Source: an uncultured Chloroflexia bacterium
GTDB taxonomy: Bacteria; Chloroflexota; Limnocylindria; Limnocylindrales; CSP1-4
Assembly (NCBI GenBank): GCA_963760735.1
Contig: CAVXEB010000004.1
Location: forward strand, 1,592,329-1,656,328
Reading direction: 5' to 3'
DNA: 64,000 bases
The stretch's first letter is position 1, and each line of letters starts with the position of its first letter. Under the pieces are notes generated by a model. It was not told the DNA's origin. It saw nothing but the letters and a program-made list of their open reading frames with translations, and made no database searches. This document shows, piece after piece, positions 9,039 to 27,963 of this stretch. Both the position numbers and the translations under genes were made by a program.

Positions 9039-9078
9039 CGTGGGCGATCGACTGTGTAGTGTGTTGCCTTGATCTGGT

Positions 9079-9125: not shown

Positions 9126-9158
9126 CTCAGCACCCGAATCCTCAATAGGTCGGTCGGG

Positions 9159-13193: not shown

Positions 13194-13198
13194 TCGAT

Positions 13199-14617
13199 GT
13201 GAACCGCAGGTTCGCACCCGTCGTCGTGGTCGCTCTGCTAGTCATCGCCGGCTGTACGACCGGGCAACCGCCTGGGAGCGGGTCCGCTTCGCCGAGCCTG
13301 GCTGTGCCGAGCATGGCGTCCGTCCCGTCGTCGACCCCGACGAGCCCACCCAGCCCGGCAGCCAGCCCCGGAGTGGCCTCGATCTCCGATGGCCCGCTCG
13401 CCCCCGGCACCTACAGGATCCCGCAGTGGGACACGGGCTGCAGCGAGCACCAGCCAGGGTGCAGCCCGTCGCCCGCGCATGACGCCGTCCGCGTGACCCT
13501 CACCGTGCCCGGTGGCTGGGAGGGGATCGCGGGCACGATCTGGTTGGCCGAAAAGGGGAATGGGGCGCCCGACGGGGCCGGTCTGCTCGTCGGCAGGGGC
13601 GCCTGGCTGCTGACCGATGCGTGCACGAAGGCCGAACACGCGATCCCTCCGGATATCGAGGTCGGACCGAGTGTCGACGACTTCGCCAACGCCATCGCGG
13701 GTCATCCACTGCTCGATGCCTCGGATCCTGTCGACGTCACCCTTGCCGGATACGCCGGCAAGTACATCGACCTGCAGGTGCCGGCCGATCTCTCCAAGTG
13801 CGAGGTCTACCGTCCCTTCGATCCCGGGATCTACGCCCAGGGGCCGAGCCACCAGTGGCACCTCTGGATCCTCGACGTGGATGGCCTCCGCTTCGTGGTC
13901 CAGAGCACGGACTACCCAGGAACGTCGGCAAAGCACAAGACGCAGCTCAAAGCGATCGTGGATTCGATCAGGATCGACACTGGCGCGACGCCCGAGGTCC
14001 TCGGGGAGCGGCTGGCGGCCGGCACCCACACGGCGGCACCGTTCGACCCAGCGCTGCCCGACGCGTGGGGCGTCTGTGTTGGCCAGCCCGGCTGTTCGGA
14101 AGATCCCGCCGACGACTCGATCCGCATCACCTATACGGTGTCGGAGGGCTGGGCCTTCGGCTACGGGGCCGCGGTGACCAAACCGTCCGCGGGCACGGTC
14201 GCACCGAGCGGGATGAGCCTGCACTTCCTCCGTGGCGGGTGGCTGTTCAGCGACCCTTGCGTCACGACCGAAAGACCGCCGGACATCGAGGTCGGGCCGA
14301 CCGCCGACGACTTCGCCGACGCGCTCGCCGCCCATCCGCTCCTGGATGTCACGACGCCGGTCGATGTCAGGCTCGGTGGGTTCTCAGGGAAGTACCTCGA
14401 CCTCCAGGTGCCGGCTGACATCAGCGCCTGCGCCGAGTCCTACTACCCCTGGACGCCCGCCTTCTCTGCCCAGGGCCCGAACCATCGATGGCACATCTGG
14501 AACCTCGATGTCGACGGCGTCCGGGTCGTGATCCAGAGCGGAGACTTCGCAGGGACGCTACCGGAGAACCTCGTCGAGATGCACACAATCATCGAGTCCA
14601 TCCAGATCGAGCCCTGA
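13199..14617 (+). CDS. Secreted lipoprotein containing two tandem copies of an uncharacterised approximately 190-aa domain (paralogous to the ectodomain of anti-sigma 15738-16700)
   Basis: GTG 13199 gives MNRRFAPVVVVALLVIAGC with a lipobox; TTG 13190 is the alternative. The internal repeat spans DIEVGPSVDDFANAIAGHPLLD ... LQVPADLSKC ... WHLWILDVDGLRFVVQS and DIEVGPTADDFADALAAHPLLD ... LQVPADISAC ... WHIWNLDVDGVRVVIQS. Confidence 0.7.
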   Translation: MNRRFAPVVVVALLVIAGCTTGQPPGSGSASPSLAVPSMASVPSSTPTSPPSPAASPGVASISDGPLAPGTYRIPQWDTGCSEHQPGCSPSPAHDAVRVTLTVPGGWEGIAGTIWLAEKGNGAPDGAGLLVGRGAWLLTDACTKAEHAIPPDIEVGPSVDDFANAIAGHPLLDASDPVDVTLAGYAGKYIDLQVPADLSKCEVYRPFDPGIYAQGPSHQWHLWILDVDGLRFVVQSTDYPGTSAKHKTQLKAIVDSIRIDTGATPEVLGERLAAGTHTAAPFDPALPDAWGVCVGQPGCSEDPADDSIRITYTVSEGWAFGYGAAVTKPSAGTVAPSGMSLHFLRGGWLFSDPCVTTERPPDIEVGPTADDFADALAAHPLLDVTTPVDVRLGGFSGKYLDLQVPADISACAESYYPWTPAFSAQGPNHRWHIWNLDVDGVRVVIQSGDFAGTLPENLVEMHTIIESIQIEP

Positions 14618-14928
14618 CACGATTGGCTCGAGTGGCTCGCGCCGCTCGACGCGCGGGCCGGACGTGTGAGCGGTGTTGGTCGGACGCTCTCCTCGGCCAC
14701 CTGCCCGATGGCCGGCAGTGTCTGAGCCGCGGCCGCTGCGGACGGCTCACTCGGTTCGTCGATGGAACGGCCGTATTGAGCCGGAGCGAGTAGCCGTCGG
14801 CCTCGTTCGGGCGACCTCACGGTCATCAGCTACTCGAGCGTTGTGCCAGGCATTCGAGCGGAAGCGCAAGCGGGTTCGCCTCGGAGCACAGGGCTGATGC
14901 CTTTGTGCATCGGCTATTCTTGATCGGC

Positions 14929-14965
14929 GCCGACATAGCTCAGCGGTAGAGCAGCTGTTTCGTAA
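14929..14965 (+). repeat. 5' half of tRNA-Thr(CGT) (acceptor 5' strand through the anticodon loop, GCCGACATAGCTCAGCGGTAGAGCAGCTGTTTCGTAA); att-like remnant
   Basis: Identical to nt 1-37 of the intact tRNA at 21265. The identity breaks exactly in the anticodon loop and is followed by a 55-nt sequence identical to that after the 17663 copy. Confidence 0.8.
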
Positions 14966-15047
14966 GTCTCCCGCCCTGTGCGCAGTGCTACCCCGAGTGG
15001 CGGCCCGATACAAACGGGCACACTTATCAGCTATTCAATTCTTGGGG

Positions 15048-15094
15048 TGGTCCGCCTAGGATCGACGCTGCGGGCCGCTAGCGTCCGAGCCGAC
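15048..15094. repeat. About 45-nt repeat, copy 2 (see 9079-9125)
   Basis: GGATCGACGCTGCGGGCCGCTAGCGTCCGAGCCGACCCTGA matches 9079-9125 at about 85% identity. Confidence 0.6.
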
Positions 15095-15186
15095 CCTGAC
15101 TACCCGCACTGAACGATTCCGGCGCTCCGTACCCTCATGCTCGATAGACCGCGGTCGTCTCGACCACGGCTGATCGCCGGAGACCC

Positions 15187-15741
15187 ATGGACCGAGACCT
15201 CGTCGAGCGGGCGCGCTCGGGCGACCAGGCGGCATTCGAGGATCTGGTGCACCAGGTCAGCGACACGCTGTTCGGGATCGCTCGACGCATCCTGCGCGAT
15301 CCCGGCCTCGCCGAGGACGTTCTGCAGAACGCCCTTGTGACCATTTGGCGGAAGCTGCCGCATCTGCGGGAGCCAGACCGCTTCGAGGCATGGGCCTACC
15401 GGATCCTCGTCAACGCTTGCTACGCGGTTGCTCCGCACAACCGGAGATGGGCATCGACCGTGCGCGTTCTCCCAATCGATCGGGCGGACGACGTGGACGC
15501 TTACCAATCGATCTCCAATCGCGACGAGTTGGAGCAGGCTTTCCGCCGGCTACCGCTCGACCAGCGGGCGGTGTTCGTCCTCCACCACCACGTGGGCCTG
15601 CCCCTCGTGGCAGTGGCCGAGACGCTCGGCATCCCCGACGGAACCGCCCGCTCGCGACTGCACTACGCCACCCGCGCACTTCGGTCCGCTTTCGAGGCGG
15701 GCCGGGCGCCGATCAAGGTCCAGGAAGGGCGACTGTCATGA
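15187..15741 (+). CDS. ECF sigma factor
   Basis: MDRDLVERARSGDQAAFEDLVHQ ... ALVTIWRKLPHL ... VFVLHHHVGLPLVAVAETLGIPDGTARSRLHYA, 184 aa. Confidence 0.85.
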   Translation: MDRDLVERARSGDQAAFEDLVHQVSDTLFGIARRILRDPGLAEDVLQNALVTIWRKLPHLREPDRFEAWAYRILVNACYAVAPHNRRWASTVRVLPIDRADDVDAYQSISNRDELEQAFRRLPLDQRAVFVLHHHVGLPLVAVAETLGIPDGTARSRLHYATRALRSAFEAGRAPIKVQEGRLS

Positions 15742-16700
15742 GCGACGACCGAGCCTTCGAACGCGCCGTGGACGACTGGCTGGCAGACGGGTCCGACCGG
15801 ACCCCTCGGCCGGTGGTCGACGCCGTCTTCCTGGCCATCAAGACGACACCACAATCGCGGGATCTTCGGATTCCGTGGAGGACCCCACCCATGTCCGTTC
15901 CGCTGCGGCTCGCCGCCGGGATCGCGGTCGTCGCGATCGTCGGCTTCGCGGCCCTGACCGTCTTCACACCGGGCACCGGCCCCGGCTCCGGCCCGACGCC
16001 GGCGCCGTCGGCCACTCTCGCGCCGACCCCGTCACCGTCGCTCCTCCCCGCGGCTGGCGCCCTCGAACCGGGGACGTATGATTGGATTGCGTACTACACG
16101 CCCGTGGGGGGAGCGCGGTTCACCATCACCGTACCCGAGGGATGGGCGACGGCTGAGGGAGGAGTATTCGTCTATAGGAATCGCGTGGCCGCTGCGGCGA
16201 GCATGCCGCCGTTCACTGGATCTGGCGAGGTCCTACTCGCTATCTGGACCGTCAGCCATGTCTACACCGACGCCTGCCATCACGATGCGACGCTGGTCGA
16301 CGCCGGAACGACGATCGATGAGCTTGCGAGCTTGCTGGTGGCGCAGAAGGGCCGGGTCGCGTCGGCCGCCACCGACGTCACCCTGGGGGGCTTCCCGGCC
16401 AAGCGGATCGAGTTGACCGTCCCGGCCGACCTCGATGTCACGAAATGCGACGGGGGAATCATCAGGTTCTGGCCGGACCCGGGCCCGGATGAGTCCGGCG
16501 GCCTGTGCTGCAGTGCCGTCGGTTCGACCGATGTCGTCTATGTCGTCGACGTCGCCGGCGATCGCTTCGCCGTCGTTGCCAGGCATCAGGCGAGCAGCTC
16601 TGCCGAGGAGCTGGCCGAGCTCGAGGCCATCGTCGCTTCCATCAAGATCGAACCGCCGGCAACCAGTCCGTCCCCATCGGGCGCGTCCCCGTCTCCCTGA
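15738..16700 (+). CDS. Anti-sigma factor with one TM helix and an extracytoplasmic domain homologous to the lipoprotein 13199-14617 repeat
   Basis: ATGA overlap with the sigma stop. The TM helix is LAAGIAVVAIVGFAALTVF. The ectodomain (EPGTYDW ... TVPEGW ... DAC ... DVTLGGFPAKRIELTVPADLDVTKC ... VYVVDVAGDRFAVVARH) aligns with both repeats of the lipoprotein. Confidence 0.7.
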   Translation: MSDDRAFERAVDDWLADGSDRTPRPVVDAVFLAIKTTPQSRDLRIPWRTPPMSVPLRLAAGIAVVAIVGFAALTVFTPGTGPGSGPTPAPSATLAPTPSPSLLPAAGALEPGTYDWIAYYTPVGGARFTITVPEGWATAEGGVFVYRNRVAAAASMPPFTGSGEVLLAIWTVSHVYTDACHHDATLVDAGTTIDELASLLVAQKGRVASAATDVTLGGFPAKRIELTVPADLDVTKCDGGIIRFWPDPGPDESGGLCCSAVGSTDVVYVVDVAGDRFAVVARHQASSSAEELAELEAIVASIKIEPPATSPSPSGASPSP

Positions 16701-16826
16701 TCGGCCACACGACGCAAGGCACGCTTCAATCCGAGGGGGAGCCCGTGCTCCCCCCGGAAGGATTGGGGTCTCCAGAGTGACACCCGCTTACGCCACGTCG
16801 CCCTGACAAGTGCTACTATGTCGCAC

Positions 16827-17090
16827 ATGGAACGTGTCGGTGTGCGCGAGCTTCGGCGTCAGGCCAGTGCCATCCTGCGAAGAGTCGCCGCGGGCGAGAC
16901 GATCGAGGTCACTGATCGAGGACGTCCGGTCGCGGTCCTGCTGCGATCGATGCCAACCGGTCTGGCCAAGCTCGAGCGCGAAGGACTGCTGCGTCGCGCC
17001 GAGGCTGACCTGCTCGACCTCCCCACGGTCCAGCTGCCGGCCAATTCACCCGCTCCGTCCGACCTCGTGTCGAAGGCGCGGACGGATTGA
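16827..17090 (+). CDS. Phd/YefM-family antitoxin
   Basis: MERVGVRELRRQASAILRRVAAGETIEVTDRGRPVAVLL matches the Phd/YefM fold; it overlaps the downstream PIN toxin by 4 nt. The ORF track places the start at 16818 (MSHM...). Confidence 0.7.
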   Translation: MERVGVRELRRQASAILRRVAAGETIEVTDRGRPVAVLLRSMPTGLAKLEREGLLRRAEADLLDLPTVQLPANSPAPSDLVSKARTD

Positions 17091-17482
17091 AGGCCGTCTA
17101 TCTCGATAGCTCGGCGTTCGTCAAGCTGGTCGTCACCGAGGCGCAGTCGACCGAGCTCCGAGAATTCCTCGCGACGCACGAGGCTCGCCGCGTGTCGTCT
17201 TCCCTCCTCCGGGCCGAAGCCCTCCGAGCGGTCCGCCACCTGGGGCCTGACGCTCTCGCCATCGCCCGCGAGGGCCTTCGGCGTGTCGACCTGATCGCCA
17301 TCGACGATCGGATCCTCGATGCGGCCGGCATCCTCGAGCCTCGAATACTGCGCACGCTCGATGCCATCCATCTCGCGACCGCTCTGACGCTAGGTGACGA
17401 CCTCGACACGATCGTGACCTACGACGATCGGATGATCGAGGGGGCGGCGCTCATCGGGCTGGCCGCCGTCGCCCCGCGCTGA
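17087..17482 (+). CDS. vapC: PIN-domain toxin VapC
   Basis: MKAVYLDSSAFVKLVVTEAQS ... SSSLLRAEAL ... DAIHLATAL ... IVTYDDRM. Confidence 0.85.
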   Translation: MKAVYLDSSAFVKLVVTEAQSTELREFLATHEARRVSSSLLRAEALRAVRHLGPDALAIAREGLRRVDLIAIDDRILDAAGILEPRILRTLDAIHLATALTLGDDLDTIVTYDDRMIEGAALIGLAAVAPR

Positions 17483-17662
17483 TTGCGCCTAGATCGAACG
17501 GTCGTGCGGTTCGGGACCTCTCAAGGGTGCCCGACAGTCGTCGGCGTAGACACACTTATCAGCTGTTCGAGCGCTGTGCTACCGCTCTGAGCACGATCGC
17601 CGGCATGCTCCCGTGAGGGCGAATTGCCGCTGTGCGTTGAGCATCGGCTATTCTTGATCGGC

Positions 17663-17699
17663 GCCGACATAGCTCAGCGGTAGAGCAGCTGTTTCGTAA
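17663..17699 (+). repeat. Second copy of the 5' half of tRNA-Thr(CGT); att-like remnant
   Basis: It is identical to 14929-14965 and to nt 1-37 of the intact tRNA. It is embedded in an approximately 130-nt repeat (17642-17770 versus 14912-15036). Confidence 0.8.
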
Positions 17700-17870
17700 G
17701 TCTCCCGCCCTGTGCGCAGTGCTACCCCGAGTGGCGGCCCGATACAAACGGGCACACGTTTCAGCTATTCGGATTCAGGCACTGCCCGCCGCAGACGCAC
17801 GCTACGGCTGCGTCTTCCCGACACGACCCGGATGACCCTCCGCGATCCAACTGAACGCTCAACATCCCGT

Positions 17871-19052
17871 TCAAGAGCCGGAGACGGGGGCCCAGCTGTA
17901 CGTGCCATAGGTGGACGGTTCGTGGGTCACCTGGCCGATGAAGGCGCCGTCGAGATCCATGATCCAGAGGTCGTTGAGATCGCCGGCACCACGCTGGACG
18001 AGCAGATACTTCCCGTCCGGCGACCACTCGCCGACCTCGGCTTGGTCGGAGCCATCGGTCGCCGAGATTTCCTTCTGATCGCTGCCGTCGGGGCGGACCA
18101 GCGAGACCACGGACGTGCTCCCGTGCTTCCGCGAATAGGTGATCCACTCTCCGGTCGGAGACCACGACACCGCCCAGACAAAGTCCGCGCGCTCCGTGAT
18201 CGGTCGGGCCTCGCCGTCGTCGACGTCGACGTCGACGACGTAGATCCTGCCCTCGACGCCGAACGTCGCGCGCCTCCCATCCGGCGAGAGGCTGCCGACT
18301 GGCACGTCGAAGAAGTCGATCTTCGTGCCCGGCGGGTTGAGCTGGCGCAAGCCGCTGCCATCGGCGTTGACGACGTACACGTCGCCCGCCTCGTGCGGCT
18401 CGTCAGCACGTTCGGCCATGAACAGGATCTTCGACGCGCCCGGCGTGATCCCGAATGGATCGACATGGGCGATCCCCTCCGGAAGCGCGATCACGAGGCG
18501 GAGGTCGGCGAGGTCGGGGGATCCAAGGTACAGGCCGTTCCGAGCCGGCCGCGTATCATCCCAGCCGTCGAAGGCGATCCATCGACCATCTACGCTCGGC
18601 GTTGCCGGGCCAAGGGTGAGCGTCTTGATGGGTGGATCGATGACCGTGCGGTCAGCGCCATCCGGCCGCATCGTGGTGAACGACCAGGTGCCGTGCCCGG
18701 TGGAGCCCATCGTCCAGACGTGCGTCCCGTCCGTCGACCAACGGGCGCAGGCGCAGCCTTCGGCCGTGAAGAGCGCACGCTCATCCGTCCCGTCCGTGTT
18801 GATTGTGAAGTAGTGCTCCACCTGATCCGAGCCGCGACGATGGAACAGGATCCGGCCCGGCGGGACTTCGGCCGGGACCGCGGTCGCCGTGGGCTCGGGT
18901 GATGCGAGCGCCGTTCGACCAGGAGATGCCGGTGCAGTCGGCGAGGCGCCCGACCGAGCTGGGCCCGAGCCCTGGCAGGCCACCAACGACAGGGCAAGCA
19001 CCAGCCGCAAGCCTGCCCGTGGCCGACGAGTATTCACGACGTCGGCTGCCAA
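17871..19052 (-). CDS. Lipoprotein with PD40 / TolB-like beta-propeller repeats
   Basis: The signal peptide has lipobox LSLVAC. Repeated WSxDG(T/K) PD40 motifs are present (WSTDGTHVW, WSPTGEWITY, WSPDGKYLLV). The 5' end overlaps the upstream anti-sigma by 19 nt. Confidence 0.7.
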   Translation of the reverse strand: MAADVVNTRRPRAGLRLVLALSLVACQGSGPARSGASPTAPASPGRTALASPEPTATAVPAEVPPGRILFHRRGSDQVEHYFTINTDGTDERALFTAEGCACARWSTDGTHVWTMGSTGHGTWSFTTMRPDGADRTVIDPPIKTLTLGPATPSVDGRWIAFDGWDDTRPARNGLYLGSPDLADLRLVIALPEGIAHVDPFGITPGASKILFMAERADEPHEAGDVYVVNADGSGLRQLNPPGTKIDFFDVPVGSLSPDGRRATFGVEGRIYVVDVDVDDGEARPITERADFVWAVSWSPTGEWITYSRKHGSTSVVSLVRPDGSDQKEISATDGSDQAEVGEWSPDGKYLLVQRGAGDLNDLWIMDLDGAFIGQVTHEPSTYGTYSWAPVSGS

Positions 19053-20374
19053 AGCGCGTTGATCAGGAATTCGGTAACGGGAATCTTGCTATCTGGATCG
19101 TGGACCCACGCACAGGCCAAGCAGCCCGCTGCCGAGAGCTGGGCCACGTCCTCGACCGGCAGCTTGGCCTTGTTGGCGCCATCGGCATCCATGATCCAAA
19201 GCTCGAATCCCGTGGGCGCCGACGGATCGCCAACGCTGTGGGCGAAGACCAGGCGCCCATCTGCCGTCCAATTCGGTCGGCCAGAAGCGCGGTCGGTCGT
19301 CAAGGCCTGAAGACCGGTGCCGTCCGGGCGAATGGCGTAAATATCCCCGCCATGGGGAGTCTCACCGGGGGTCTCGCCGTAGAAGACGATCAGCGAGCCA
19401 TCCGGCGACCAGCGCGGCTCGATGGCATAGAGGTTCCGCGGGCCAATCTGATGCAGGTTGCTCCCATCAGCATTGACCATGAGGAGCGTCGCTTGGGAGG
19501 GACGGGCCGTCTGCCGAGCGAAGGTCAATCGGGTCCCGTCCGGCGACCAATGCGGCGCGTCATTGCGGTCGGAGGCCGTCGAGGCGAGCTCGGTGACGTG
19601 ACCGGTGGCCACGTCCACCAGGGCGATCACCGATCCCCCCGAGGTCGTGATGGGCGGCCGGGCGAACGCGATCGTGGCGCCGTCTGGCGAGAACTCGTAG
19701 CCCGAGACCGTGGGGCAGCCGATCGGGCACAAGACGTCAAATGGGAGCGACTGCAGGACGGCGCCCGACGCATCGGCCAGCCACAGTCCCGCGGCATCCT
19801 CGAAGAGCAGGCGGGTCCCATCACGTGACCACGAAAGGGGGGTCTGGTAACCGTGGTGGTCCGGCAGCAATTCGTGCGCATTGGTTCCATCCGTGTTCGA
19901 AACCCAGATCCGCGAGCATCCGGTGGGCCGCTGGTCGTCCCACCAACCCCTAGCTCCACGCTCACAGTCCGTGTCGACCGCCTCGAGTGGAACGAACTTC
20001 ACGTACGCGATCAGGCCCGAGGACGCAGGGGGCACTGAAGGGGCCTCCGACCGGAGTTCGGCGGATGGTTCGGTGGACGGATCCGCCGACCTGACAACGG
20101 ACGGCGGCACGACAGACGGCAACTTGACGATGCCGGACCCAGCGATGAGCGCCCCGCCCACGATCGCGCTGATCAATGCTGCGGCGACGAGCACGAGACT
20201 CGTCCGGCGACCGAACCTGGCCGGCCAGCGGCCGAACCAGCGGCGCTGCGGCACGAGGGGGATCGTCGCCAGGACGTGCTGGTAGAAGCGGTCTTCGTCT
20301 CCCAGGTCGGCAGCCCGCTCGCGGAGTCCTTGGGCGAGGTACGTATCGACGAGGTCGGGGTCGATGGTGGTCAT
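19034..20374 (-). CDS. Anti-sigma factor with one TM helix and an extracytoplasmic PD40/TolB-like beta-propeller
   Basis: 4-nt overlap with the ECF sigma 20371-20934. The TM helix is LVLVAAALISAIVGGALIAGSGI. PD40 motifs follow (WSRDGTRLLF, FSPDGATIAF, WSPDGTRLTF, WSPDGSLIVF). Confidence 0.7.
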   Translation of the reverse strand: MTTIDPDLVDTYLAQGLRERAADLGDEDRFYQHVLATIPLVPQRRWFGRWPARFGRRTSLVLVAAALISAIVGGALIAGSGIVKLPSVVPPSVVRSADPSTEPSAELRSEAPSVPPASSGLIAYVKFVPLEAVDTDCERGARGWWDDQRPTGCSRIWVSNTDGTNAHELLPDHHGYQTPLSWSRDGTRLLFEDAAGLWLADASGAVLQSLPFDVLCPIGCPTVSGYEFSPDGATIAFARPPITTSGGSVIALVDVATGHVTELASTASDRNDAPHWSPDGTRLTFARQTARPSQATLLMVNADGSNLHQIGPRNLYAIEPRWSPDGSLIVFYGETPGETPHGGDIYAIRPDGTGLQALTTDRASGRPNWTADGRLVFAHSVGDPSAPTGFELWIMDADGANKAKLPVEDVAQLSAAGCLACAWVHDPDSKIPVTEFLINALWQPTS

Positions 20375-20934
20375 GCCTGGGTCTCCAGCGCTCGTCCGAG
20401 CGCCTTTCGCGCGGCGTGGAGCCGTGACTTCGCGGTGCCGACGGGAATGCCGAGCTCCCGCGCGACCTGGTCCAGAGGGCGCTCCTCGAGATGGTGGAGG
20501 GCAAGGATCTGGCGATCGGCGATCGACAGGCGATCGAAGGCGGCCAGCACCGCGGCGCGCTCGAGCGCATGCGGCGCTGGATCCGCGGCTTGCAGAGCCG
20601 CTCCCTCGAGGTCGATCTCCCTTATGCGCCCACGCCTGCGCAGCAGATCACGGCAGCGGTTTGCGAGGATGGTGTTCAGCCACGCGTTGAACCGGCGCTC
20701 GTCACGAAGCCGCGGGAGGTTCTGCCAGGCCGAGACGAAGGCATCCTGGGTGGCATCCCGGGCGTCTGCCTCGTTCCTGACGATCGTGCGGGCGAGCCTG
20801 AGCAGGCCCGGCAGCCGGTCCGCCATCAGGAGGCCGAATGCGTCGGCGTCACCGCGCGCCGCTCGGGTGATGAGGACGTCATCGGCGACCGACGCCGCAT
20901 CGCGGGTGCCTCGGGTCAGGTCCAAGGCGCACAT
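20371..20934 (-). CDS. ECF sigma factor
   Basis: LITRAARGDADAFGLLMADR ... DATQDAFVSAWQNLPRL ... ILALHHLEERPLDQVARELGIPVGTAKSRLHAARK, 187 aa. Confidence 0.85.
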   Translation of the reverse strand: MCALDLTRGTRDAASVADDVLITRAARGDADAFGLLMADRLPGLLRLARTIVRNEADARDATQDAFVSAWQNLPRLRDERRFNAWLNTILANRCRDLLRRRGRIREIDLEGAALQAADPAPHALERAAVLAAFDRLSIADRQILALHHLEERPLDQVARELGIPVGTAKSRLHAARKALGRALETQA

Positions 20935-20966
20935 CGTGGGCTCCTCGTAGGTCGCATGTCACGTAT

Positions 20967-20992
20967 GACGGCCACCAAGCGGGTCTGGTTCG
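20967..20992 (-). promoter_or_regulatory. Candidate ECF-type autoregulatory promoter (-35 GAACC, 16-nt spacer, -10 CGTC) upstream of sigma 20371-20934
   Basis: The minus strand reads tcGAACCagacccgcttggtggcCGTCatacg about 33 nt upstream of the ATG. A second GAACC lies about 25 nt further upstream. Confidence 0.35.
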
Positions 20993-21250
20993 AGCCTTCT
21001 CAAGCTCTGGTTCGTGTAGCCACGGGACGCCCCGGGCCCACCGGCCTGTTGACTGGTGCCTGACCCCCGCGGATTCACGCTTCGAACTCCGGGCCGGGAG
21101 GTCAAATAGAACGCCCGTTCCGGGAGACCGTGGGATTTGACCTACGTGCTCTGACAGTCATCGGCTGTTCGAGCGCTGTGCCGGCCAGATGAAGGCGATC
21201 CCGACCGTGCTCCAGAGCTCGTGAACAGACTGATGTCTTCGAGCAGCACC

Positions 21251-21256
21251 TATAAT
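21251..21256 (+). promoter_or_regulatory. TATAAT -10-like hexamer 8 nt upstream of tRNA-Thr
   Basis: Exact TATAAT in a 70%-GC background immediately before the tRNA 5' end. Confidence 0.3.
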
Positions 21257-21264
21257 CGTGCGGC

Positions 21265-21339
21265 GCCGACATAGCTCAGCGGTAGAGCAGCTGTTTCGTA
21301 AACAGCAGGTCCTCGGTTCAAATCCGAGTGTCGGCTCCA
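21265..21339 (+). tRNA. tRNA-Thr (anticodon CGT), intact, with encoded CCA
   Basis: Manual fold of the cloverleaf is complete: acceptor GCCGACA/TGTCGGC, D stem GCTC/GAGC, anticodon stem GCTGT/ACAGC with loop TTCGTAA (anticodon CGT), variable AGGTC, T stem CTCGG/CCGAG with TTCAAAT loop, discriminator T, then CCA. Confidence 0.9.
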
Positions 21340-21397
21340 CTCCCCTCTTCGTGCTCAGGAAGAGCAGCTGTTTGGAGTTAGCACGGTCTTTGCGGCG

Positions 21398-21435
21398 GAC
21401 GAAGACCTGCTAACTGACGAAGACCTGCTAACTGG
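21398..21435 (+). repeat. Tandem direct repeat 2 x 19 nt (GACGAAGACCTGCTAACTG) just downstream of tRNA-Thr. Related copies occur at 23950-23966 and 26408-26423.
   Basis: Read from the sequence; the GAAGACCTGCT core recurs. Confidence 0.7.
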
Positions 21436-21498
21436 ACAGGTTCCTACCCTCGGCGAGGGCCGTCCAAGCACGAGCGTGTCTGCCGGCGAGGCGAGACG

Positions 21499-21531
21499 CC
21501 AACATCAGGGCCCACGAAGACCTGCTGTCTT
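21499..21531. repeat. Inverted repeat GAAGACCTGCT-N11-AGCAGGTCTTC sharing the GAAGACCTGCT core
   Basis: Perfect 11-bp arms. Confidence 0.6.
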
Positions 21532-22040
21532 CCAGATAGCAGGTCTTCCCGAATACAGGAATCCGGCTGATCGGTCGCGCGGTTCTACCGCCACGCGGTC
21601 TGTGATGACCGACCGCGTACGGTCTCGTCCAATGAAGCTCTCCGACCAGTACGACCTCGAGGGCTTCCAGCAGGACGTCAACTGGCGGGCACCTGCGTTC
21701 GTTCGGGACCCAACTCGTCGCAGCCGGCCTGGATGAGTTGGCATCGATTGACTTCTGGGATGAGGACGTCGGCCGCTTCTACGTCGCAACGGAGGCCGCC
21801 ATCTACATCGGCGTCTTCACGCCACGTCGCGACAGCGGGTTTGATCTCAACCTGAGGCGAGCGGCATACCGTGGCGTCATGTGTCCTCCTTGCGATCACC
21901 ACCGATGTGGGCGAGGGAACCGTCGTCAAGTGAGGATCGAGGATCCGGCCTTGGAACGAGCGTCGAATCGCGATCGAGAGCTGAAGCGGCTGGCGGAGTT
22001 CGGGACGGTCTGCCTCCGGCGCCACGGGCGACACGGTCGG

Positions 22041-22793
22041 CTACCAGCGGAAGAGCGCCAGCTCCTCTGCGAACGACAAGTCCACGACCTCCGAGGGGAC
22101 TTCGTCAGAGGCGGCGGCCCCGGTCTCAGGTGGCAGGAGCTGTCGTGCGAGGGTCGCGAACTGCCATGCCTTGTACCGTTCGATCGGCCACCCGCATTCC
22201 TCGGTGAAGGCCTGGTAGGTCTCCCAGCGGTGCACCCCGAACAGCAAGTCGAGCGCCAGTGATGGATCGAGTCCGGGACGTAGCTCGCCGCCGCGAGCGA
22301 ACGTCTCGATGACCTGCCGCATTCCATCCCGCCGGCGCCGTTCGAGTGCATGCCACGCTTCGTCGACGCCAGGGTCCACCGATGCGGCCGCGCGGACGGC
22401 GGGCATCAGTGGGCTCACGCCCCGATAGATCTCGTTGCCGTACTCGACGATGAGCGCGAGACGCCGCGTACCGGATGTCGCGGCCATCACGTGACCGAAC
22501 CAGGCGCGCTCGATTGGCTCTTCGGGACCACCCTGCTCACCACCGGCCACGTTCAGGGCCGCGAGGAGCAGCTCGGCCTTGGTATGAAACGCGAAATAGA
22601 CCGTCTGTACGGCGACTCCTGCGTCGGCGGCGATCGTTTCCATCGTCGTGGCCGCGTAGCCCGGGCCCTGGAAGCGGATCAGGGCGGCCTCGATGATCCG
22701 GCGACGGGTCGCCTGCGCTCGTTCACGTCGGGTGGGGCTCGGAACGTCCGATGGAGGAATTGGGGGCTTGACTGCGGTCATGGTGGACAGCAT
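22041..22793 (-). CDS. TetR/AcrR-family transcriptional regulator
   Basis: N-terminal HTH (RRRIIEAALIRFQGPGYAATTMETIAADAGVAVQTVYFAFHTKAELL) with a C-terminal ligand-binding domain. Confidence 0.85.
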   Translation of the reverse strand: MLSTMTAVKPPIPPSDVPSPTRRERAQATRRRIIEAALIRFQGPGYAATTMETIAADAGVAVQTVYFAFHTKAELLLAALNVAGGEQGGPEEPIERAWFGHVMAATSGTRRLALIVEYGNEIYRGVSPLMPAVRAAASVDPGVDEAWHALERRRRDGMRQVIETFARGGELRPGLDPSLALDLLFGVHRWETYQAFTEECGWPIERYKAWQFATLARQLLPPETGAAASDEVPSEVVDLSFAEELALFRW

Positions 22794-22849
22794 ACTCCAG
22801 CACTCACTAGCGTGACCTCTAGTGGCGAGTCTGATAGCGCGAGGATGCC

Positions 22850-23329
22850 ATGACCGCGGTGATCGAGAACACGATCGACATCACCCGCCCGCCCGATGCG
22901 GTCTTCGATTACCTTTCCGACCTCCAGAACGAGCTCCAGTGGAATCCGGATTGCGTATCGGTGGAGAAGCTCACCGACGGGGCGGTTGGCCTGGGGACAC
23001 GGTTTCGGGCCAAGTGGAAGCAAGGCCCGGCCATCGAAACCGAGTGCACGCTGTTCGAGCGGCCGCGATCCTGGCGGTACGAGAACGGCGGCCCCGCAAG
23101 CCTGGTGCTCACGATCAAGCTCGAGGCAACCCCAACCGGCGGCACGCGGATGACGTCGCATGGCGAGTGGACGCCTCACGGTTGGTTTCGCCTGGCCTTT
23201 CCCGTCTTCATCCGCGTGATGCGACGCGCCGAGCACGGCGTCGTCGCCAACGCCCGACGCGCCCTGGAGGAAGGGCTCGACCGGCCACCAGGGCGATCGC
23301 CAACAGCGTTACCTGCAGGCAGGGCATGA
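22850..23329 (+). CDS. SRPBCC-superfamily protein (polyketide cyclase / dehydrase-like)
   Basis: IDITRPPDAVFDYLSDLQNELQWNPDCVSVEKL ... follows the SRPBCC pattern, 159 aa. Confidence 0.7.
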   Translation: MTAVIENTIDITRPPDAVFDYLSDLQNELQWNPDCVSVEKLTDGAVGLGTRFRAKWKQGPAIETECTLFERPRSWRYENGGPASLVLTIKLEATPTGGTRMTSHGEWTPHGWFRLAFPVFIRVMRRAEHGVVANARRALEEGLDRPPGRSPTALPAGRA

Positions 23330-23790
23330 CTGGACCCGATGCCGCAGTCACGGAGCACGCTTTGGTAGCGGCTCGAATGGTTGGAACCGGCTCCGAGCGC
23401 GGCGCACTAGCCATCCGCGTCGCCGCAGGCATGCATCTCTTCCTGGGCCTGGCCTTCGGTGCTTCCGTCCCGATCGTGCTCAGCCACCTCGTCCGCCAAG
23501 GCGAGCTGCCGATGTCACCCTTTGGATGGAGGTACATGGCCGGACAGCCGGTCGAACACCTGAGCACCGACCAGTTCATCGCGCTCGGTTGGGCGCTCGT
23601 CGGCGTTTCTGCCCTCGACGTGGTCGCCGGGATCTGGCTCTGGCAGGGTCGCCGCCGAGGTCTCAGGCTGGCGCTCGCAACCGCCGCTCCGGCCCTCGTC
23701 CTCGGCGCCGCCTTCGAGCTGCCGCTGCTCCTGGTCGGCGTGCCGATCCGGACGGCGCTGGCTTTGGCGGGGCGTCGGGCGGTCCGATGA
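23326..23790 (+). CDS. Small integral membrane protein (about 4 TM)
   Basis: ATGA overlap with the SRPBCC stop. Helices include LAIRVAAGMHLFLGLAFGASVPIVL and FIALGWALVGVSALDVVAGIWLW. Confidence 0.5.
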   Translation: MTGPDAAVTEHALVAARMVGTGSERGALAIRVAAGMHLFLGLAFGASVPIVLSHLVRQGELPMSPFGWRYMAGQPVEHLSTDQFIALGWALVGVSALDVVAGIWLWQGRRRGLRLALATAAPALVLGAAFELPLLLVGVPIRTALALAGRRAVR

Positions 23791-24019
23791 GTTCGCCGGA
23801 TCTCGACTAAGCGCGCGCAAGCTCAGTCGCGACGATCGGCGACTCCGCGCGTCCTCGTGGGCATGGTCGGCGATGTATATGCCCACCTCCGAGGGACGAT
23901 GTCGGCGACATCGCGCCATACCTCAGAGGCTGACAACGGGTTCAGAATCGAAGACCTGCTAACTGAGCGGCCTACGCTCGCGATTCCATGCTTGTGCTAC
24001 AACGCTTACGCCGAACTCC

Positions 24020-24064
24020 TTCGTAAACAGCAGGTCCTCGGTTCAAATCCGACTGTCGGCTCCA
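24020..24064 (+). repeat. 3' half of tRNA-Thr(CGT) (anticodon loop through CCA), 1 mismatch; att-like remnant
   Basis: TTCGTAAACAGCAGGTCCTCGGTTCAAATCCGACTGTCGGCTCCA matches nt 31-75 of the intact tRNA, with one mismatch in the T arm (GAGTG to GACTG). Confidence 0.8.
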
Positions 24065-24421
24065 ACAGATCATGCGTGAGGTCGGGCCCTTTGCCCGCTC
24101 TCAGGGCTGTTGTCGCCGTTTCGTGAGCCCTGCTCTGACCCCTTTCGCGACTCTCTTCCACGACCACTCGTCTGGTGATCTGGGAGCCGCGTGCTTCGGG
24201 TGGTCATTGCCCGCGCAACTACCTCGAAATCGAGGTGAGCGGAGAGCGCGCCGGCGGCCACCCAGCCGCTGATCGGCGCGTTGCCGTCATCATCCACGAC
24301 CGTCGAGGGCAGCGTTGTCGGGACAGTTGGCACTGTCCGGGGCGCGTCCTTCGCCCGATCATGAGGGCAACCCTACAGGGTGACCCTCGGGCCACTCGAC
24401 CACGCAACGGAGGTGGTGACC

Positions 24422-24640
24422 ATGGTGGCCAAGCAACGGGACCGCATCCTGATCGACTCCGACAAGGCCGGCGAACCGGCTCGCGAAGGCGAGATTCTCG
24501 AGGTGATCGAGGCCGAGTACGGGACCCGCTACCGTGTCGCCTGGGACGACGGGCACGAGTCGACGATCCGGCCGGCAGGCGGAATCGCCCATGTCGTCCA
24601 TCCCACGGAGAAGGTCGGGCCGACGGAACCGCGGCGCTGA
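24422..24640 (+). CDS. DUF1918-like small protein
   Basis: MVAKQRDRILIDSDKAGEPAREGEILEVIEAEYGTRYRVAWDDGHESTIRP resembles actinobacterial DUF1918 proteins. Confidence 0.55.
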   Translation: MVAKQRDRILIDSDKAGEPAREGEILEVIEAEYGTRYRVAWDDGHESTIRPAGGIAHVVHPTEKVGPTEPRR

Positions 24641-24842
24641 TCCGGTCGAAGAGCGATCAGATAGCGCGAGGAGGCCGTTTGCGTCCCACACTGGAGGCCG
24701 ATCAAGCACCCGCTGGCTCGGCGGTCATCGACGGGCCCCGCTGCTCGTCCCCCTCGTCCCAAGCAGCAGGTCGTCTCCGTGGCCGCAACGAGTGGAACGG
24801 CCGGCGGCGACTCGATGACCGCCCCCAGGGGAAGGAGGGGCT

Positions 24843-25262
24843 GTGATGACCAGTCCCCGCACTACCGGTGTCTGGATCTCCGCCAACTCCGCAACCGTGT
24901 TGCGCTGGAGCCCGGAGCTCACCGCGCGCCACCGCATCGACTCGACGGTACCTGGCCGGCGCCGCTCGACGGGACGACCACCCACCGAAGAGCACCCGGG
25001 CGGCGAAGGCCATCGCGACGAACACATGCGGGCCTTCTTCGATCAGGTCTCTCGAGTGGTGGCGGTTGACGACGACCTGCTCCTGGTCGGGGACGGAGAG
25101 GTCGTCGGGCACCTCGCGGACGACATCCGGGCCGACGACGCGAACCACGGCCGTGAGAGACGGATCCAGGTCCAGAAGAGCGGGCCGATCACGGAACCCC
25201 AGTTGCTCGCCCGGATCCGAACGTTCGCGGGATCGCCAGCCAAACGCCACCGGCCGCGCTGA
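24843..25262 (+). CDS. Hypothetical protein
   Basis: Protein-like composition with no recognised domain. An Arg-rich antisense ORF (24702-25250) overlaps it. Confidence 0.3.
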   Translation: MMTSPRTTGVWISANSATVLRWSPELTARHRIDSTVPGRRRSTGRPPTEEHPGGEGHRDEHMRAFFDQVSRVVAVDDDLLLVGDGEVVGHLADDIRADDANHGRERRIQVQKSGPITEPQLLARIRTFAGSPAKRHRPR

Positions 25263-25512
25263 TCACGGGTATTGACTCGGGACTGACCGGGATTCGAAGC
25301 CTCGTCCCGCCGCACAACCGCGCACCCGAAGCGCTTGCGCGCGATCACGACCGGCTCGCTGATTGTGAGATTTGGCCGGAGGACTAGGATAGGTGCGGCC
25401 CCCGCTCCGCACGTCGACGACGATCCCTTTTGGGGTTTGGTCAGATCGCGACAACCGGGGGCCTCTGCCGGGCGCATGAGTTTGCCGAGGGCCCTGGTGG
25501 CAGGAGGACGAG

Positions 25513-26328: not shown

Positions 26329-26466
26329 ATCTCCGTTGGAGACGGGTTTCGGAGTGGCCTCGGGTTTCGGCTACTCCCCACCTTCGTGCTCGAGTTGCGG
26401 CGCGTTGAAGACCTGTTGACTGGGCGGCCAGGGCTCGCGATGAAGAGCAGCCTCTGACGGGCGATG

Positions 26467-27814: not shown

Positions 27815-27963
27815 CCTTACCCCCCCTGTGGAGCGGCCTCGCATCATCGTAGGACGCTGACGACTCGCTGGCGTTTCGGCGAGCGCGATACGGGTCAACC
27901 GTGCGGCCGGGGACAAGGCGGCCCACACTTGAAGGGTTCTGCCCGTTGCTGTGAGGCGACCGC

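Follow-up and report, generated by a model that had tools for sequence, protein, structure and literature searches.

The window analysed here, a 64-kb stretch of DNA, contains one tRNA gene, a tRNA-Thr(CGT) at 21265-21339 on the forward strand (ARAGORN; Rfam tRNA, 72.6 bits), whose anticodon loop TTCGTAA occupies 21295-21301. The initial annotation described half copies on both sides of this intact gene, and that observation holds exactly. The 37-nt 5' half of the tRNA (through TTTCGTAA) is repeated without mismatch at 14929-14965 (copy 1, forward strand, tRNA positions 1-38, matching 21265-21301 and ending in TTCGTAA) and at 17663-17699; three exact occurrences of a 37-mer within 64 kb exclude chance. 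Both upstream halves are followed by the same non-tRNA sequence, identical over 57 nt (55 nt had been reported), and the whole repeat, 14903-15036 versus 17637-17770, shows 98% identity over 134 nt. Homologous regions with 62-70% identity precede the two halves and the intact gene, at approximately 14819, 17552 and 21154. On the other side, the 45-nt 3' part of the tRNA (TTCGTAA to CCA) is found again at 24020-24064 with a single mismatch, a G to C change that disrupts a T-stem pair. TTCGTAA provides the last bases of the 5' fragments and the first bases of the 3' fragments, and their overlap is exactly this 7-nt anticodon loop.

The repeat unit is conserved as was claimed, but it measures approximately 370 bp and not 190 bp: about 170 nt corresponding to the region upstream of the tRNA, followed by the 37-nt 5' half and an arm of about 165 nt, the whole being conserved across at least 140 non-redundant copies. 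The upstream part of module 1 (P-arm, 14760-14928, forward strand; nhmmer profile match 14812-15045, E=3e-64; 140 non-redundant modules) contains a hairpin region of the GAACG..CGTTC type, ATCAGCTACTC at 14825, an inverted GCTGAT, ATCGGCTATTC at 14909 and a -10-like TATTCT. The adjoining 5'-half copy 1 constitutes the attL-type junction on the left of islet 1, and the islet 1 arm (P' side, 14966-15131, forward strand) presents, in order, GTCTCCCGCC..GCGCAGTGCTAC..CCGATACAAACGGGCAC, ATCAGCTATTC at 15026 and GGATCGACGCTGCGGGCCGCTAGCGTCC..CCGACCC. Module 2 (17489-17865, forward strand; nhmmer 17546-17779, E=1e-62), which shares the 98% repeat with module 1, consists of an upstream part that forms the right end of islet 1 (17489-17662), 5'-half copy 2 (17663-17699) and an arm that forms the left end of islet 2 (17700-17865), with motif matches at 17558, 17643 and 17760. 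The upstream part of module 3 (21100-21264, forward strand; nhmmer 21148-21301, E=2.5e-30) forms the right end of islet 2 and at present also flanks the intact tRNA on its 5' side; it has a motif match at 21160 and a -10-like TATAAT at 21250-21255. ATCAGCTRTTC repeats recur at constant positions (-104, -20 and +61, with an inverted copy at -38); the window holds nine matches versus 0.6 expected, seven of them within the three modules. These short repeats are putative arm-type binding sites.

Each displaced copy retains its promoter-like upstream region, and the sequence is strongly conserved, as might be expected if the 5' half and arm encoded a functional RNA or served as a leader (for instance, a regulatory RNA derived from the tRNA, or a promoter and leader that drive the cargo) and had been duplicated together with the genes they serve. 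However, the tRNA is the only Rfam match in the window, and RNAalifold analysis of 140 non-redundant arms revealed no compensatory pairs, suggesting that the module is conserved as DNA sequence, as expected of protein-binding sites. Moreover, cargo genes mostly run opposite to the tRNA (107 opposite versus 74 in the same direction), and so does the gene that immediately follows the arm in 45 of 65 cassettes. A functional RNA would also leave the 3'-type family and the cassette polymorphism described below unexplained, and we regard this explanation as very improbable.

The gene content previously listed for the islets is correct (Pfam). Islet 1 carries, on the forward strand (15187-17482), an ECF sigma factor (15187-15741), an anti-sigma-like protein (15738-16700), a Phd antitoxin (16818-17090) and a PIN toxin (17087-17482). 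The cargo of islet 2 (17871-20934, reverse strand; Pfam) comprises two PD40 proteins (17871-19052 and 19034-20374) and an ECF sigma factor (20371-20934); a homologous cassette with 68% identity is present in L101. From break to break (14966-17699), islet 1 is shared at 98.9-99.2% identity by L004, L029 and L063, genomes that represent different species; identity falls to 59-66% in the 160 nt left of its left 5' half and to 54-76% in the 160 nt past its right break. Its right neighbour varies by genome, being another arm, a tRNA 3' half or unrelated DNA. The edges of this discrete mobile unit lie at the 5'-half copies.

Presence and absence also differ between relatives. In L063, islet 1 directly abuts the intact tRNA, an empty site for islet 2, and L250 has a single 2-kb cassette adjoining the tRNA, a sigma/anti-sigma version that lacks the toxin-antitoxin pair. 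Cassette order is variable as well: a Kelch cassette lies right of islet 1 in L029 and left of it in the window.

Could such exchanges be driven by homology? A single ancient integration might have been followed by RecA-dependent recombination after DNA uptake, with the 370-bp modules acting as portable homology and no dedicated recombinase involved. The near identity of modules inside one genome (the 98% repeat in the window), the clean deletion of whole modules and the failure to find a cis recombinase at the junctions searched would all fit, and in L029 the block of islet 1 identity continues for 109 nt within the following arm. At position 16, the two 5'-half copies of L063 have a T where islet 1 elsewhere has a C; this is not predicted by a simple crossover in the anticodon loop, so that gene conversion, which the pattern resembles, must be invoked. 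Nevertheless, the low identity of the outer flanks of islet 1 in four genomes (around 60% on the left, 54-76% on the right) places both exchange points within the 37-nt 5' half, a block too short for efficient homologous recombination. The exact meeting of 5'- and 3'-type fragments at the anticodon loop is left unexplained, and so is the conservation of the 165-nt arm with its fixed-position repeats across different Chloroflexota classes. Homology-driven exchange is therefore, in our assessment, an unlikely account of the array.

Members of this cassette family occur in dozens of Chloroflexota species from soil. At least 71 genome blocks (the genome loci were compared as 8-kb blocks) and at least 120 metagenome contigs have the module 3' of a broken tRNA-Thr(CGT) 5' half. 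The arm is not a generic dispersed repeat: among the matches listed, it always stands 3' of such a half, with the break located after the anticodon loop. Cassettes range from approximately 0.4 to 10 kb (median 2.9 kb); the median spacing between units is 2851 nt (n=78), up to five units lie within 14.5 kb (L217), and same-strand copies on single contigs are spread over 56-100 kb. Many metagenome contigs terminate within the module, indicating that the repeat does break short-read assemblies, and repeats mis-joined in a metagenome-assembled genome could in principle mimic an array. Such an assembly or binning artefact is hardly credible, given base-precise junction sequences and the recurrence of this architecture across many projects in about 190 independent contigs, some of them 0.3-2.2 Mb long.

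Of the three islets initially proposed, all stand, but a fourth and older one at 24065-26343 had been overlooked. The 3'-type islets form a second conserved family, marked by GAAGACCTGCTAACT repeats: motifs of this type have six matches in the window versus 0.32 expected, all within 3'-type modules and on both sides of the core. The left-end arm of islet 3 (21340-21550, forward strand) contains a tRNA-trailer-like CTCCCCTCTTCGTGCTCAGGAAGAGCAGCTGTTTGGAG, GAAGACCTGCTAACT at 21401 and 21419, and variants at 21516 and 21534 (inverted); these motifs are also present downstream of intact tRNAs in L052, L068, L097, L168 and L190. Its cargo (22041-23919, both strands; Pfam) encodes a TetR regulator (22041-22793, reverse), an SRPBCC/polyketide-cyclase-like protein (22850-23329, forward) and an uncharacterised protein (23515-23919, reverse); a TetR homolog with 70% identity resides within a 3'-type islet of L052. 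The right end (23945-24064, forward strand) combines a P arm, with GAAGACCTGCTAACT at 23950 followed by ..CATGCTTGTGCTACAACGCTTA.., and the displaced tRNA 3' part at 24020-24064; this arm is conserved in L052 and occurs twice in L168.

Islet 4, likewise 3'-type (both strands; Pfam), encodes a DUF1918 protein (24380-24640, forward), an acVLRF1-like protein (24843-25262, forward) and an uncharacterised protein (25441-26256, reverse). It is defined by a third, decayed copy of the tRNA 3' end with its native trailer at approximately 26344-26395, in which the T-loop is deleted; the displaced end plus trailer ACTCCCCACCTTCGTGCTC extends over 26344-26421 (forward strand; alignment to 21324-21377 and to the L065 and L080 trailers), with a GAAGACCTGTTGACT motif at 26407. 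In L065, a homolog (89%) of the window sequence from 26457 onward lies within 33 nt of the tRNA 3' end, so that islets 3 and 4 are absent there and the downstream empty site is documented too. Similarly, the homolog of this sequence follows the tRNA in L080, and the islet 4 region is absent.

The region from 3.5 to 14.8 kb, which the initial annotation did not recognise as part of the array, consists of fossil cassettes. The outermost part (3352-9057; homology to cassette cargo and Pfam) is without recognisable att modules. It contains an ECF sigma factor (3352-4194), two uncharacterised genes (4137-6661), a GyrI-like gene (6952-7584), another uncharacterised gene (7642-8160) and a PIN/RHH toxin-antitoxin pair (8386-9038). 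The segments 3498-6666 and 8385-9057 match, at 70-93%, cargo that elsewhere lies inside cassettes or directly 3' of arms (L185, L004, L017, L107, L154, L219, L063 and others). Next to it is a MazF/PemK fossil (9075-9779, reverse strand; Pfam PemK_toxin 2e-26) with the toxin at 9159-9569 and a probable antitoxin at 9570-9815; homologs of this cassette (88-89%) start about 80-93 nt after the break in L169, L043 and L217. A truncated distal arm remnant at 9085-9140 aligns locally to positions +90 to +141 of the islet 1 arm; a deletion has removed the 5' half together with the initial ~85 nt of the arm, and no right-hand module is left. Older cargo that has lost its left arm and kept its right module intact follows at 9780-14759 (forward strand; Pfam and homologs), with a Kelch-repeat protein (10392-13193) and an uncharacterised 475-aa protein with an internal 630-nt repeat (13190-14617). 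The homologous Kelch segment begins approximately 225 nt after the break in L221 and L142.

No integrase, excisionase or transposase had been seen in the islets, and Pfam/HMM searches found no recombinase anywhere in the window. The same holds for the family: HMM searches of six-frame ORFs within about 4-8 kb, the reach of the 8-kb blocks, revealed no tyrosine recombinase beside the approximately 190 arm-type junctions listed, and Pfam analysis of 300 genes flanking arm-type junctions likewise revealed no recombinase. Without a recombinase in cis, the presumed enzyme would have to act in trans. The islets had been described as either decayed or trans-mobilised; as the absence of an integrase is a trait of a whole widespread family and not of these copies, trans-mobilisation is favoured over decay.

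A further reading is that each islet was once an autonomous island or prophage that lost its integrase and became an immobile scar. Integrase-bearing elements do target this tRNA: the phage L124, in which int abuts a 3'-type attP starting at TTCGTAA, as the proposed search for an integrase with such an att site anticipated, and the L096 family, in which the break in the gene's 5' part falls at positions 38-42. Integrase remnants are found near other fragment types (L014, L109), and the distal array is clearly decaying (the arm remnant at 9085-9140, the 3' end at 26344-26395). In contrast, no recognisable integrase or remnant lies near any of the ~190 conserved-arm junctions listed, the cassettes are small and uniform in architecture, and their att module is intact and conserved. 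In addition, islet 1 is shared at about 99% identity by four species whose neighbouring DNA shows 80-90%, pointing to recent transfer of the integrase-less form. We therefore consider decayed remnants to be quite unlikely.

The explanation we favour, with a probability of roughly 0.68, is that tRNA-Thr(CGT) serves as the primary attachment site for recombinase-less cassettes that are moved in trans and form arrays on both sides of the gene. The serial site-specific insertion of integrase-less elements at the anticodon loop put forward earlier is supported by the empty sites in relatives, the mobility of islet 1, the tie of the arm to the tRNA and the use of this same site by integrase-bearing elements, and it is extended here. 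A 5'-type cassette would circulate with an attP of about 370 bp, made up of ~170 nt of promoter-like tRNA upstream sequence, the 5' half and the ~165-nt arm. Strand exchange in or at TTCGTAA would be carried out by a site-specific recombinase, most probably a tyrosine integrase of the heterobivalent kind, which a helper element or a host gene would encode elsewhere. The tRNA would receive a new promoter and 5' half from the incoming cassette, and the old ones would be displaced leftward and joined to the arm of the cassette, so that repeated insertion would yield a direct-repeat array. In the mirror-image reaction of the 3'-type family, the attP would carry the tRNA 3' part, and the array would accordingly grow on the other side of the tRNA. 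Over time, tRNA-distal modules would be deleted and the cargo fixed as fossil cassettes.

Classical core sites are usually inverted repeats. The 5'-type attP sequence right of the overlap (GTCTCCCG) does not form an inverted repeat with the left anticodon-stem site (GCAGCTGT), an asymmetry that counts against the proposed reaction. Identical ends, as expected of a circular or excised form, were found in none of the 120 metagenome contigs listed, and the arm was not found on viral or plasmid-like contigs. An anticodon-centred attP is, on the other hand, the commonest class among tRNA-targeting tyrosine integrases (2083 of 3919 islands; PMC4383910).

The closest known systems are cis-mobilizable elements, the Dehalococcoides ssrA islands, tycheposon arrays and integrons. 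Like CIMEs in accretion arrays at ICE/IME att sites, e.g., Streptococcus ICESt1/CIME (PMC5704250, PMC6323972), the cassettes are att-flanked, lack integrase and transfer genes, lie in tandem at a primary attachment site and presumably depend on a recombinase supplied elsewhere. However, CIMEs are sporadic deletion derivatives beside a parent ICE, whereas here a whole widespread family, with about 190 junctions listed, has no parent or helper in view, the cassettes are very small, the arrays long, and the att module includes the tRNA promoter and 5' half. In the same phylum, Dehalococcoides has tandem direct-repeat islands with accessory, strain-specific cargo at the single-copy ssrA gene, a t(m)RNA gene, and an integration module is missing from 15 of 31, for which cis-mobilization has been proposed (PMC3146451). 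In the present family, what is repeated is one part of the tRNA, either the 5' half or the 3' part, with the break at the anticodon loop; the att module spans ~370 bp and none of the islands has a recombinase.

Islands catalogued by Islander/TIGER are similarly delimited by an intact tDNA and a displaced fragment in direct orientation around an anticodon-centred site; the element restores the tRNA, and serial integration leads to tandem arrays. Among these, islands with a 5' fragment form a recognised minority (159 of 3919) and arrays of three or more are rare (four cases), and by definition every island has an integrase gene and a length of at least 2 kb (PMC4383910, PMC7192596). Lacking an integrase as a rule, the cassette family falls outside this definition and would go unreported by those tools. 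In Prochlorococcus tycheposons, serial tRNA integration also moves older elements outward, with partial tRNAs between elements and degenerate material building up distally into a hypervariable island, but these elements of 10-20 kb themselves encode a tyrosine or serine recombinase and, in many cases, replication genes (bioRxiv 10.1101/2020.12.28.424599), neither of which is carried by the cassettes described here.

The likeness to integrons would lie in the array form, the single primary site, the lack of an own recombinase, the toxin-antitoxin and accessory cargo and the variable order. Integrons and chromosomal super-integrons are long direct-repeat arrays of small recombinase-less cassettes at one primary site, served by a trans-acting enzyme; their cargo includes many toxin-antitoxin pairs and accessory functions, and cassette order differs between relatives. 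In contrast to integrons, no intI adjoins the array, about 370 bp of conserved sequence without covariation take the place of a structure-defined attC, the cassettes are usually multi-gene with their own regulators and in both orientations, and the primary site is inside a tRNA gene with growth on both sides. The cassette family represents an integron-like way to gather accessory genes.

The only tRNA gene detected in the window by ARAGORN and Rfam is an intact tRNA-Thr(CGT) at 21265-21339 on the + strand. As described in the initial annotation, exact repeats of its first 37 nt lie at 14929-14965 and 17663-17699. The two copies share the non-tRNA sequence behind them, with identity unbroken for 57 nt, and homologous upstream DNA (62-70% identity) precedes both copies as well as the intact gene. 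The full repeat extends over 134 nt with 98% identity (14903-15036 vs 17637-17770). The 45 nt from TTCGTAA to CCA are likewise present again, at 24020-24064, with a single mismatch that disrupts a T-stem pair. TTCGTAA, the complete 7-nt anticodon loop, forms the end of the 5' fragments and the start of the 3' fragment, and the fragments at 14929, 17663 (5') and 24020 (3') all lie on the + strand, in the same direction as the tRNA at 21265. GC content dips to 66% at 16-24 kb, compared to 69-73% elsewhere in the window. Pfam analysis agrees with the gene content first listed for the islets, and the reported absence of a recombinase among the islet genes was confirmed.

The conserved unit exceeds the repeat recognized initially. 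Alignment of 140 non-redundant copies gives a conserved length of ~370 bp, hereafter the module, consisting of an upstream part of ~170 nt (a GAACG..CGTTC palindrome, followed by CAGTyATCAGCTGTTCGAGCGyTGTGC and a -10-like CTATnCT), the 37-nt tRNA 5' half at the center, and a downstream arm of ~165 nt (GTCTCCCGCC..GCGCAGTGCTAC..CCGATACAAACGGGCAC, followed by ACTTATCAGCTATTC and then GGATCGACGCTGCGG..GCGTCC..CCGACCC). Intact modules are present at both ends of islet 1 (14966-17699) and of islet 2, which lies between the second 5'-half copy and the intact tRNA. The 11-mer ATCAGCTRTTC occupies fixed positions within every module; allowing at most one mismatch, the window contains 9 matches vs 0.6 expected, 7 of which are inside the three modules. 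Together with the TTCGTAA overlap and the GAAGACCTGCTAACT repeats, it is a putative recombination motif. Short repeats flank the core at fixed positions, a placement that makes them candidate arm-type sites of a heterobivalent tyrosine integrase.

One genome per species (185,579 species) was scanned for the tRNA 5' half followed by any base except the A of the intact gene, which yielded at least 118 eight-kb blocks with a broken 5' half, at least 71 of which have a recognizable arm homolog after the break. The blocks come mostly from metagenome-assembled genomes of Chloroflexota, labeled Chloroflexia, Limnocylindrales/Limnocylindria, Dehalococcoidia or Anaerolineae. A scan of metagenome contigs with an arm-only pattern added at least 120 further contigs, predominantly from soil. 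An assembly artefact as the source of the array architecture is excluded by its occurrence in at least ~190 independent contigs, some longer than 1 Mb.

Conservation of the arm could point to a functional RNA, but this explanation is disfavored by the orientation of the cargo (see below), by the lack of a match between the arm and any known RNA in Rfam, and by the lack of compensatory covariation, both with RNAalifold on 140 arms and in manual pair counts. On the last two results, a structured RNA or folded single-stranded DNA was rejected. A GACGCT/AGCGTC hairpin that seemed compensatory between two copies in the window was unsupported across the 140 arms. The arm is thus conserved in the DNA sequence itself, the pattern that protein-binding sites would give.

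Evidence that the cassettes, i.e., the module-bounded cargo units, move as discrete elements comes from islet 1. BLAST of the window against the loci of relatives gives 98.4-99.0% identity for islet 1 in three loci from different species (L004, L029, and L063), in which the surrounding DNA is 80-82% identical or differently arranged. From break to break (14966-17699 in the window; 2730-2735 nt) identity is 98.9-99.2% among the four genomes, vs 59-66% in the 160 nt left of the left 5' half and 54-76% in the 160 nt right of the right break. The right neighbor differs in each genome: after the right 5' half, the window continues with another arm leading into islet 2, L029 with a different arm leading into a Kelch-like cassette, L063 with the tRNA 3' half, which completes an intact gene, and L004 with unrelated DNA. 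The L004 right junction (reverse strand ~6751-6800) breaks after TTTC (tRNA position 35), not after TTCGTAA, and may represent a different element or a deletion ending inside the anticodon loop. In locus L250, the sole cassette beside the tRNA is a 2.0-kb version with the same ECF sigma (98%) and anti-sigma genes, without Phd-VapC, and a relative of islet 2 (68% identity) is present in L101. Empty sites, expected among relatives if the islets were inserted, were indeed found, as islet 2 is absent from L063 and L250, and the islets downstream of the tRNA (islets 3 and 4) are absent from L065 and L080.

The main alternative to site-specific integration is homologous recombination, with the module serving as portable homology. 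This would force both exchange points inside the 37-nt identical block in all four islet 1 contexts and leaves the conservation of the arm and the repeats across classes unexplained, and for these reasons we disfavor it. The discrete mobility of islet 1, the relatives lacking one or more islets and the fragment junctions in the anticodon loop support, and extend, the serial site-specific insertion that was proposed from the window alone.

Both 5'-half copies around islet 1 in L063 (reverse strand 2462-2498 and 5196-5232) carry a T at tRNA position 16, where islet 1's own copy has a C in the other three genomes, which suggests gene conversion between the repeats after integration. Across the loci, T alleles at this position are too few to place the crossover by this polymorphism, and some arrays are mixed.

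Arrays vary considerably in size. The 78 spacings between successive 5' halves in all loci range from 365 to 10,424 nt (median 2851), and L217 contains five units within 14.5 kb. Same-strand junctions spread across 56-100 kb of a single contig in CAVQKO010000010 (L095, L079, L035, L102), CAWHHU010000001 (L007, L050, L006), and CAVRFC010000005 (L114, L086), which suggests that very long arrays exist.

Downstream of the tRNA, the uninterrupted arrangement can be read from two relatives. A homolog of window 26457-27853 starts within 33 nt of the tRNA 3' end in L065 (89% identity), and ~270 nt past it in L080, identifying 21340-26456 of the window as inserted DNA. At 26344-26395 lies a decayed tRNA 3' end, with the T-loop deleted and followed by the native trailer ACTCCCCACCTTCGTGCTC; this resolves the insertion into two 3'-type islets, islet 3 (21340-24064) and the older islet 4 (24065-26343), which the initial annotation had missed. 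A conserved stretch of approximately 75 nt preceding the displaced 3' fragment (GAAGACCTGCTAACTG ... CAyGCTTGTGCyACAACGCTTA ...) is shared by the window, L052, and L168, where two tandem copies exist. Against an expectation of 0.3, the 15-mer GAAGACCTGCTAAC has 6 matches in the window, each at an end of islet 3 or 4, and this motif also occurs downstream of intact tRNAs in several loci. The 3'-type islets are a family of their own.

A profile search of the window did not identify 5'-type modules beyond the three, and traces of further cassettes extend to the left. The segments 3498-6666, 8385-9057, 9075-9779, 9780-13193, and 13470-14620 each match (69-93%) cargo that in other loci sits within cassettes or directly behind arms. 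A remnant of the distal part of an arm is present at 9085-9140, the preceding ~85 nt of that arm being deleted together with the 5' half, and at 9779/9780 the whole module between two cassettes is gone. Together with islets 3 and 4, these fossil cassettes delimit a hypervariable region around the tRNA of ~3.4-26.4 kb. Just left of the fossil cassettes, a ParA/MinD-like ATPase gene (2344-3183) adjoins a GGDEF gene; 29-64 kb of the window is ordinary sugar-metabolism DNA.

Cassettes contain 1-8 genes, frequently with their own regulators. The commonest Pfam families among 300 junction-flanking genes are methyltransferases, ECF sigma factors, TetR, PD40, alpha/beta hydrolases, LuxR, cyclases and response regulators; two IS256-type transposases are also present. 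Relative to the tRNA, 107 cargo genes are in opposite and 74 in co-directional orientation, and in 45 of 65 cassettes the gene closest to the arm runs opposite as well; on this basis, expression of the cargo from the displaced tRNA promoter was rejected. The regulatory (ECF sigma/anti-sigma, TetR, LuxR, cyclases), toxin-antitoxin and small-molecule-modifying nature of the cargo suggests a reservoir of niche-adaptation modules.

The islet 1 ECF sigma factor (15187-15741) belongs to a very large and tightly conserved family (2103 database clusters at E<=1e-60), with 81-98% identity in the best 120 of the 2103 clusters. Copies in L251 and L252 lie away from any tRNA-Thr module, so that this sigma/anti-sigma pair occurs in cassettes and in ordinary chromosomal surroundings alike. 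An unknown 475-aa protein (13190-14617) has an internal 630-nt tandem duplication (13646-13788 vs 14276-14418, 76%), and a segment of it is 70% similar to 16373-16433 of the islet 1 anti-sigma-like gene (15738-16700). This similarity points to a possible extracytoplasmic domain shared among cargo proteins.

No integrase, resolvase or transposase was identified in the window by Pfam analysis of all substantial ORFs. An earlier box-II regular expression proved too strict, as it missed the integrase of the viral contig L124 (discussed below); instead, recombinase HMMs were built from six tyrosine recombinases and run on every six-frame ORF of all loci (8-kb blocks). There was no match in the window, and those in the loci were limited to L096, L024 (an archaeal genome) and remnants in L014 and L109, none of which adjoins a conserved-arm junction within the 8-kb blocks. 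The HMMs did not detect tyrosine recombinases in the metagenome contigs listed (at least 120) either, recombinases are not enriched among the 25 commonest Pfam families of the 300 junction-flanking genes, and no integrase was found in three further 20-kb contexts. Similarly, no recombinase flanks the array ends in the window or the 29 intact tRNA ends in the loci. An arm-bearing autonomous element was found neither in the at least 118 genome blocks and at least 120 metagenome contigs (~8 kb around the junctions) nor in IMG/VR; the conserved arm is absent from the viral contigs of IMG/VR, and a helper on viral contigs is accordingly unsupported. The metagenome contigs listed (at least 120) showed no terminal overlaps indicative of excised circles. 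Simple decay of once-autonomous islands would have to explain why integrases are missing across the whole family and why the integrase-less form was transferred recently between species, and is disfavored on both counts.

A tyrosine integrase with TTCGTAA in its own att site, for which a search had been proposed, is encoded by L124 (IMG/VR UViG_3300045968_000086), a 13.9-kb phage contig of 69% GC with prim-pol and portal genes that probably represents a temperate phage infecting the same host lineage. The end of its integrase gene (5056-6318; Pfam 4e-19) adjoins an attP that holds the exact 45-nt 3' part of the window tRNA, starting at TTCGTAA and flanked by GGCAACAGA repeats. In a second, small integrase family (14 clusters at >=47% identity), found in L096 (1710-3269), L245 (9852-11264), L248 (9853-11264), and L249 (7576-9053), the integrase gene immediately follows a resident 5' part whose break falls at positions 38-42. 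It is itself followed by a complete, different tRNA-Thr(CGT) on the opposite strand, so that the resident tRNA is destroyed and replaced rather than reconstituted; their cargo is defense-like (M78 peptidase/HTH, DUF4411, ResIII helicase, Imm5-like). Four other loci (L034, L057, L059, L075) represent another class of junction, with a complete alternative tRNA-Thr(CGT) gene (GCCGCCTTAGCTCAGTGG...) ~22 nt past the 5' half and encoded in the same direction. The arms of the L096 family and of L124 differ from those of both cassette families. With its own arm, different architecture and complete replacement tRNA, the L096 integrase is unsupported as a helper. L124 and the L096 family demonstrate that recombinases target the site in this lineage, and do not thereby identify the helper.

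Our data are consistent with serial site-specific integration at the anticodon loop, based on the anatomy of the arrays and on known tRNA-targeting integrases. A circular 5'-type cassette would carry all three parts of the module (upstream region, 5' half, arm) as its attP. Exchange with the tRNA gene would place the arm behind the resident upstream region and 5' half at the left junction, and the resident 3' half behind those of the cassette at the right junction, regenerating the tRNA with a new promoter. The 3'-type family would use the converse reaction, and the recombinase would presumably act in trans. We infer the enzyme, the circular intermediate, the exact cleavage points and the crossover at the anticodon loop from the sequences at the junctions. 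Among 3919 known islands, 2083 have an anticodon-centered attP and 159 are 5'-fragment islands (PMC4383910). On a broader reading, to which we give roughly a one in four chance, soil Chloroflexota of the Limnocylindria type would maintain a dedicated, integron-like gene-capture platform based on a tRNA gene, in which a predicted chromosomal recombinase inserts cassettes into the anticodon loop from either side. Every 5'-type cassette would renew the promoter and 5' half of the tRNA, and the arrays, growing to 50-100 kb, would be the main accessory-gene reservoir of these genomes.

Like Islander islands, the islets show an intact tRNA gene at one end and a displaced, directly oriented fragment of it at the other, a crossover that would lie, judged by the fragment identity blocks, at a canonical sublocation (anticodon loop or T loop), and relatives in which the site is uninterrupted. 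In contrast to Islander/TIGER islands, they contain no integrase of their own. As standard island-detection tools require an integrase gene per island (PMC4383910; PMC7192596), a family of this sort is invisible to them. Islets 1 and 2, with intact modules as attL/attR-like flanks and neither integrase nor transfer genes (Pfam), resemble CIMEs, but att sites shared with an autonomous ICE or IME were not found within ~8 kb of the junctions or in IMG/VR.

The arrays are closer to CIMEs accreted at an attachment site than to integrons, which they resemble in function. Integrons comprise intI, attI and a promoter beside the first cassette, whereas no recombinase is located at the array ends or at the 29 intact tRNA ends. 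The attC sites of integrons are conserved in structure and recombined as folded single strands; in contrast, the module is conserved in primary sequence without compensatory changes (140 copies). Integron cassettes are mostly promoterless single ORFs read from the platform promoter, unlike the cassettes described here, with up to eight genes, regulators of their own and a mainly opposite orientation. The outward island growth and distal decay of the tycheposon model are alike here (10.1101/2020.12.28.424599), but not its hallmark, an own tyrosine or large serine recombinase, often with replication genes. IMEX, elements that exploit host XerCD, attach at the chromosomal dif site or at a dif-like 28-bp site; the site used by the arrays is the tRNA anticodon stem-loop. 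In Dehalococcoides, of the same phylum, ssrA islands form tandem arrays, 15 of 31 without an integration module (PMC3146451).

We found no description of this cassette family in the literature. We rate it as a known kind of system, the new aspect being two widespread recombinase-less families on one tRNA anticodon loop, on both sides, of which the upstream family carries the tRNA promoter and 5' half. Besides being widespread, these arrays escape standard tools, and the gap in their mechanism is itself informative. The trans-acting enzyme, if identified, would add a site-specific recombinase whose attP (~370 bp) is defined and whose attB is a tRNA, and its identity would tell whether integron-like gene capture arose independently of the IntI system. 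Two unrelated cassette families exploit a single 7-nt site, each from its own side. An essential single-copy tRNA gene obtains its promoter and 5' half from mobile DNA, such that the host's tRNA expression signals are replaced at every insertion. The family appears to shape tens of kb per genome in an abundant, mostly uncultured soil phylum.
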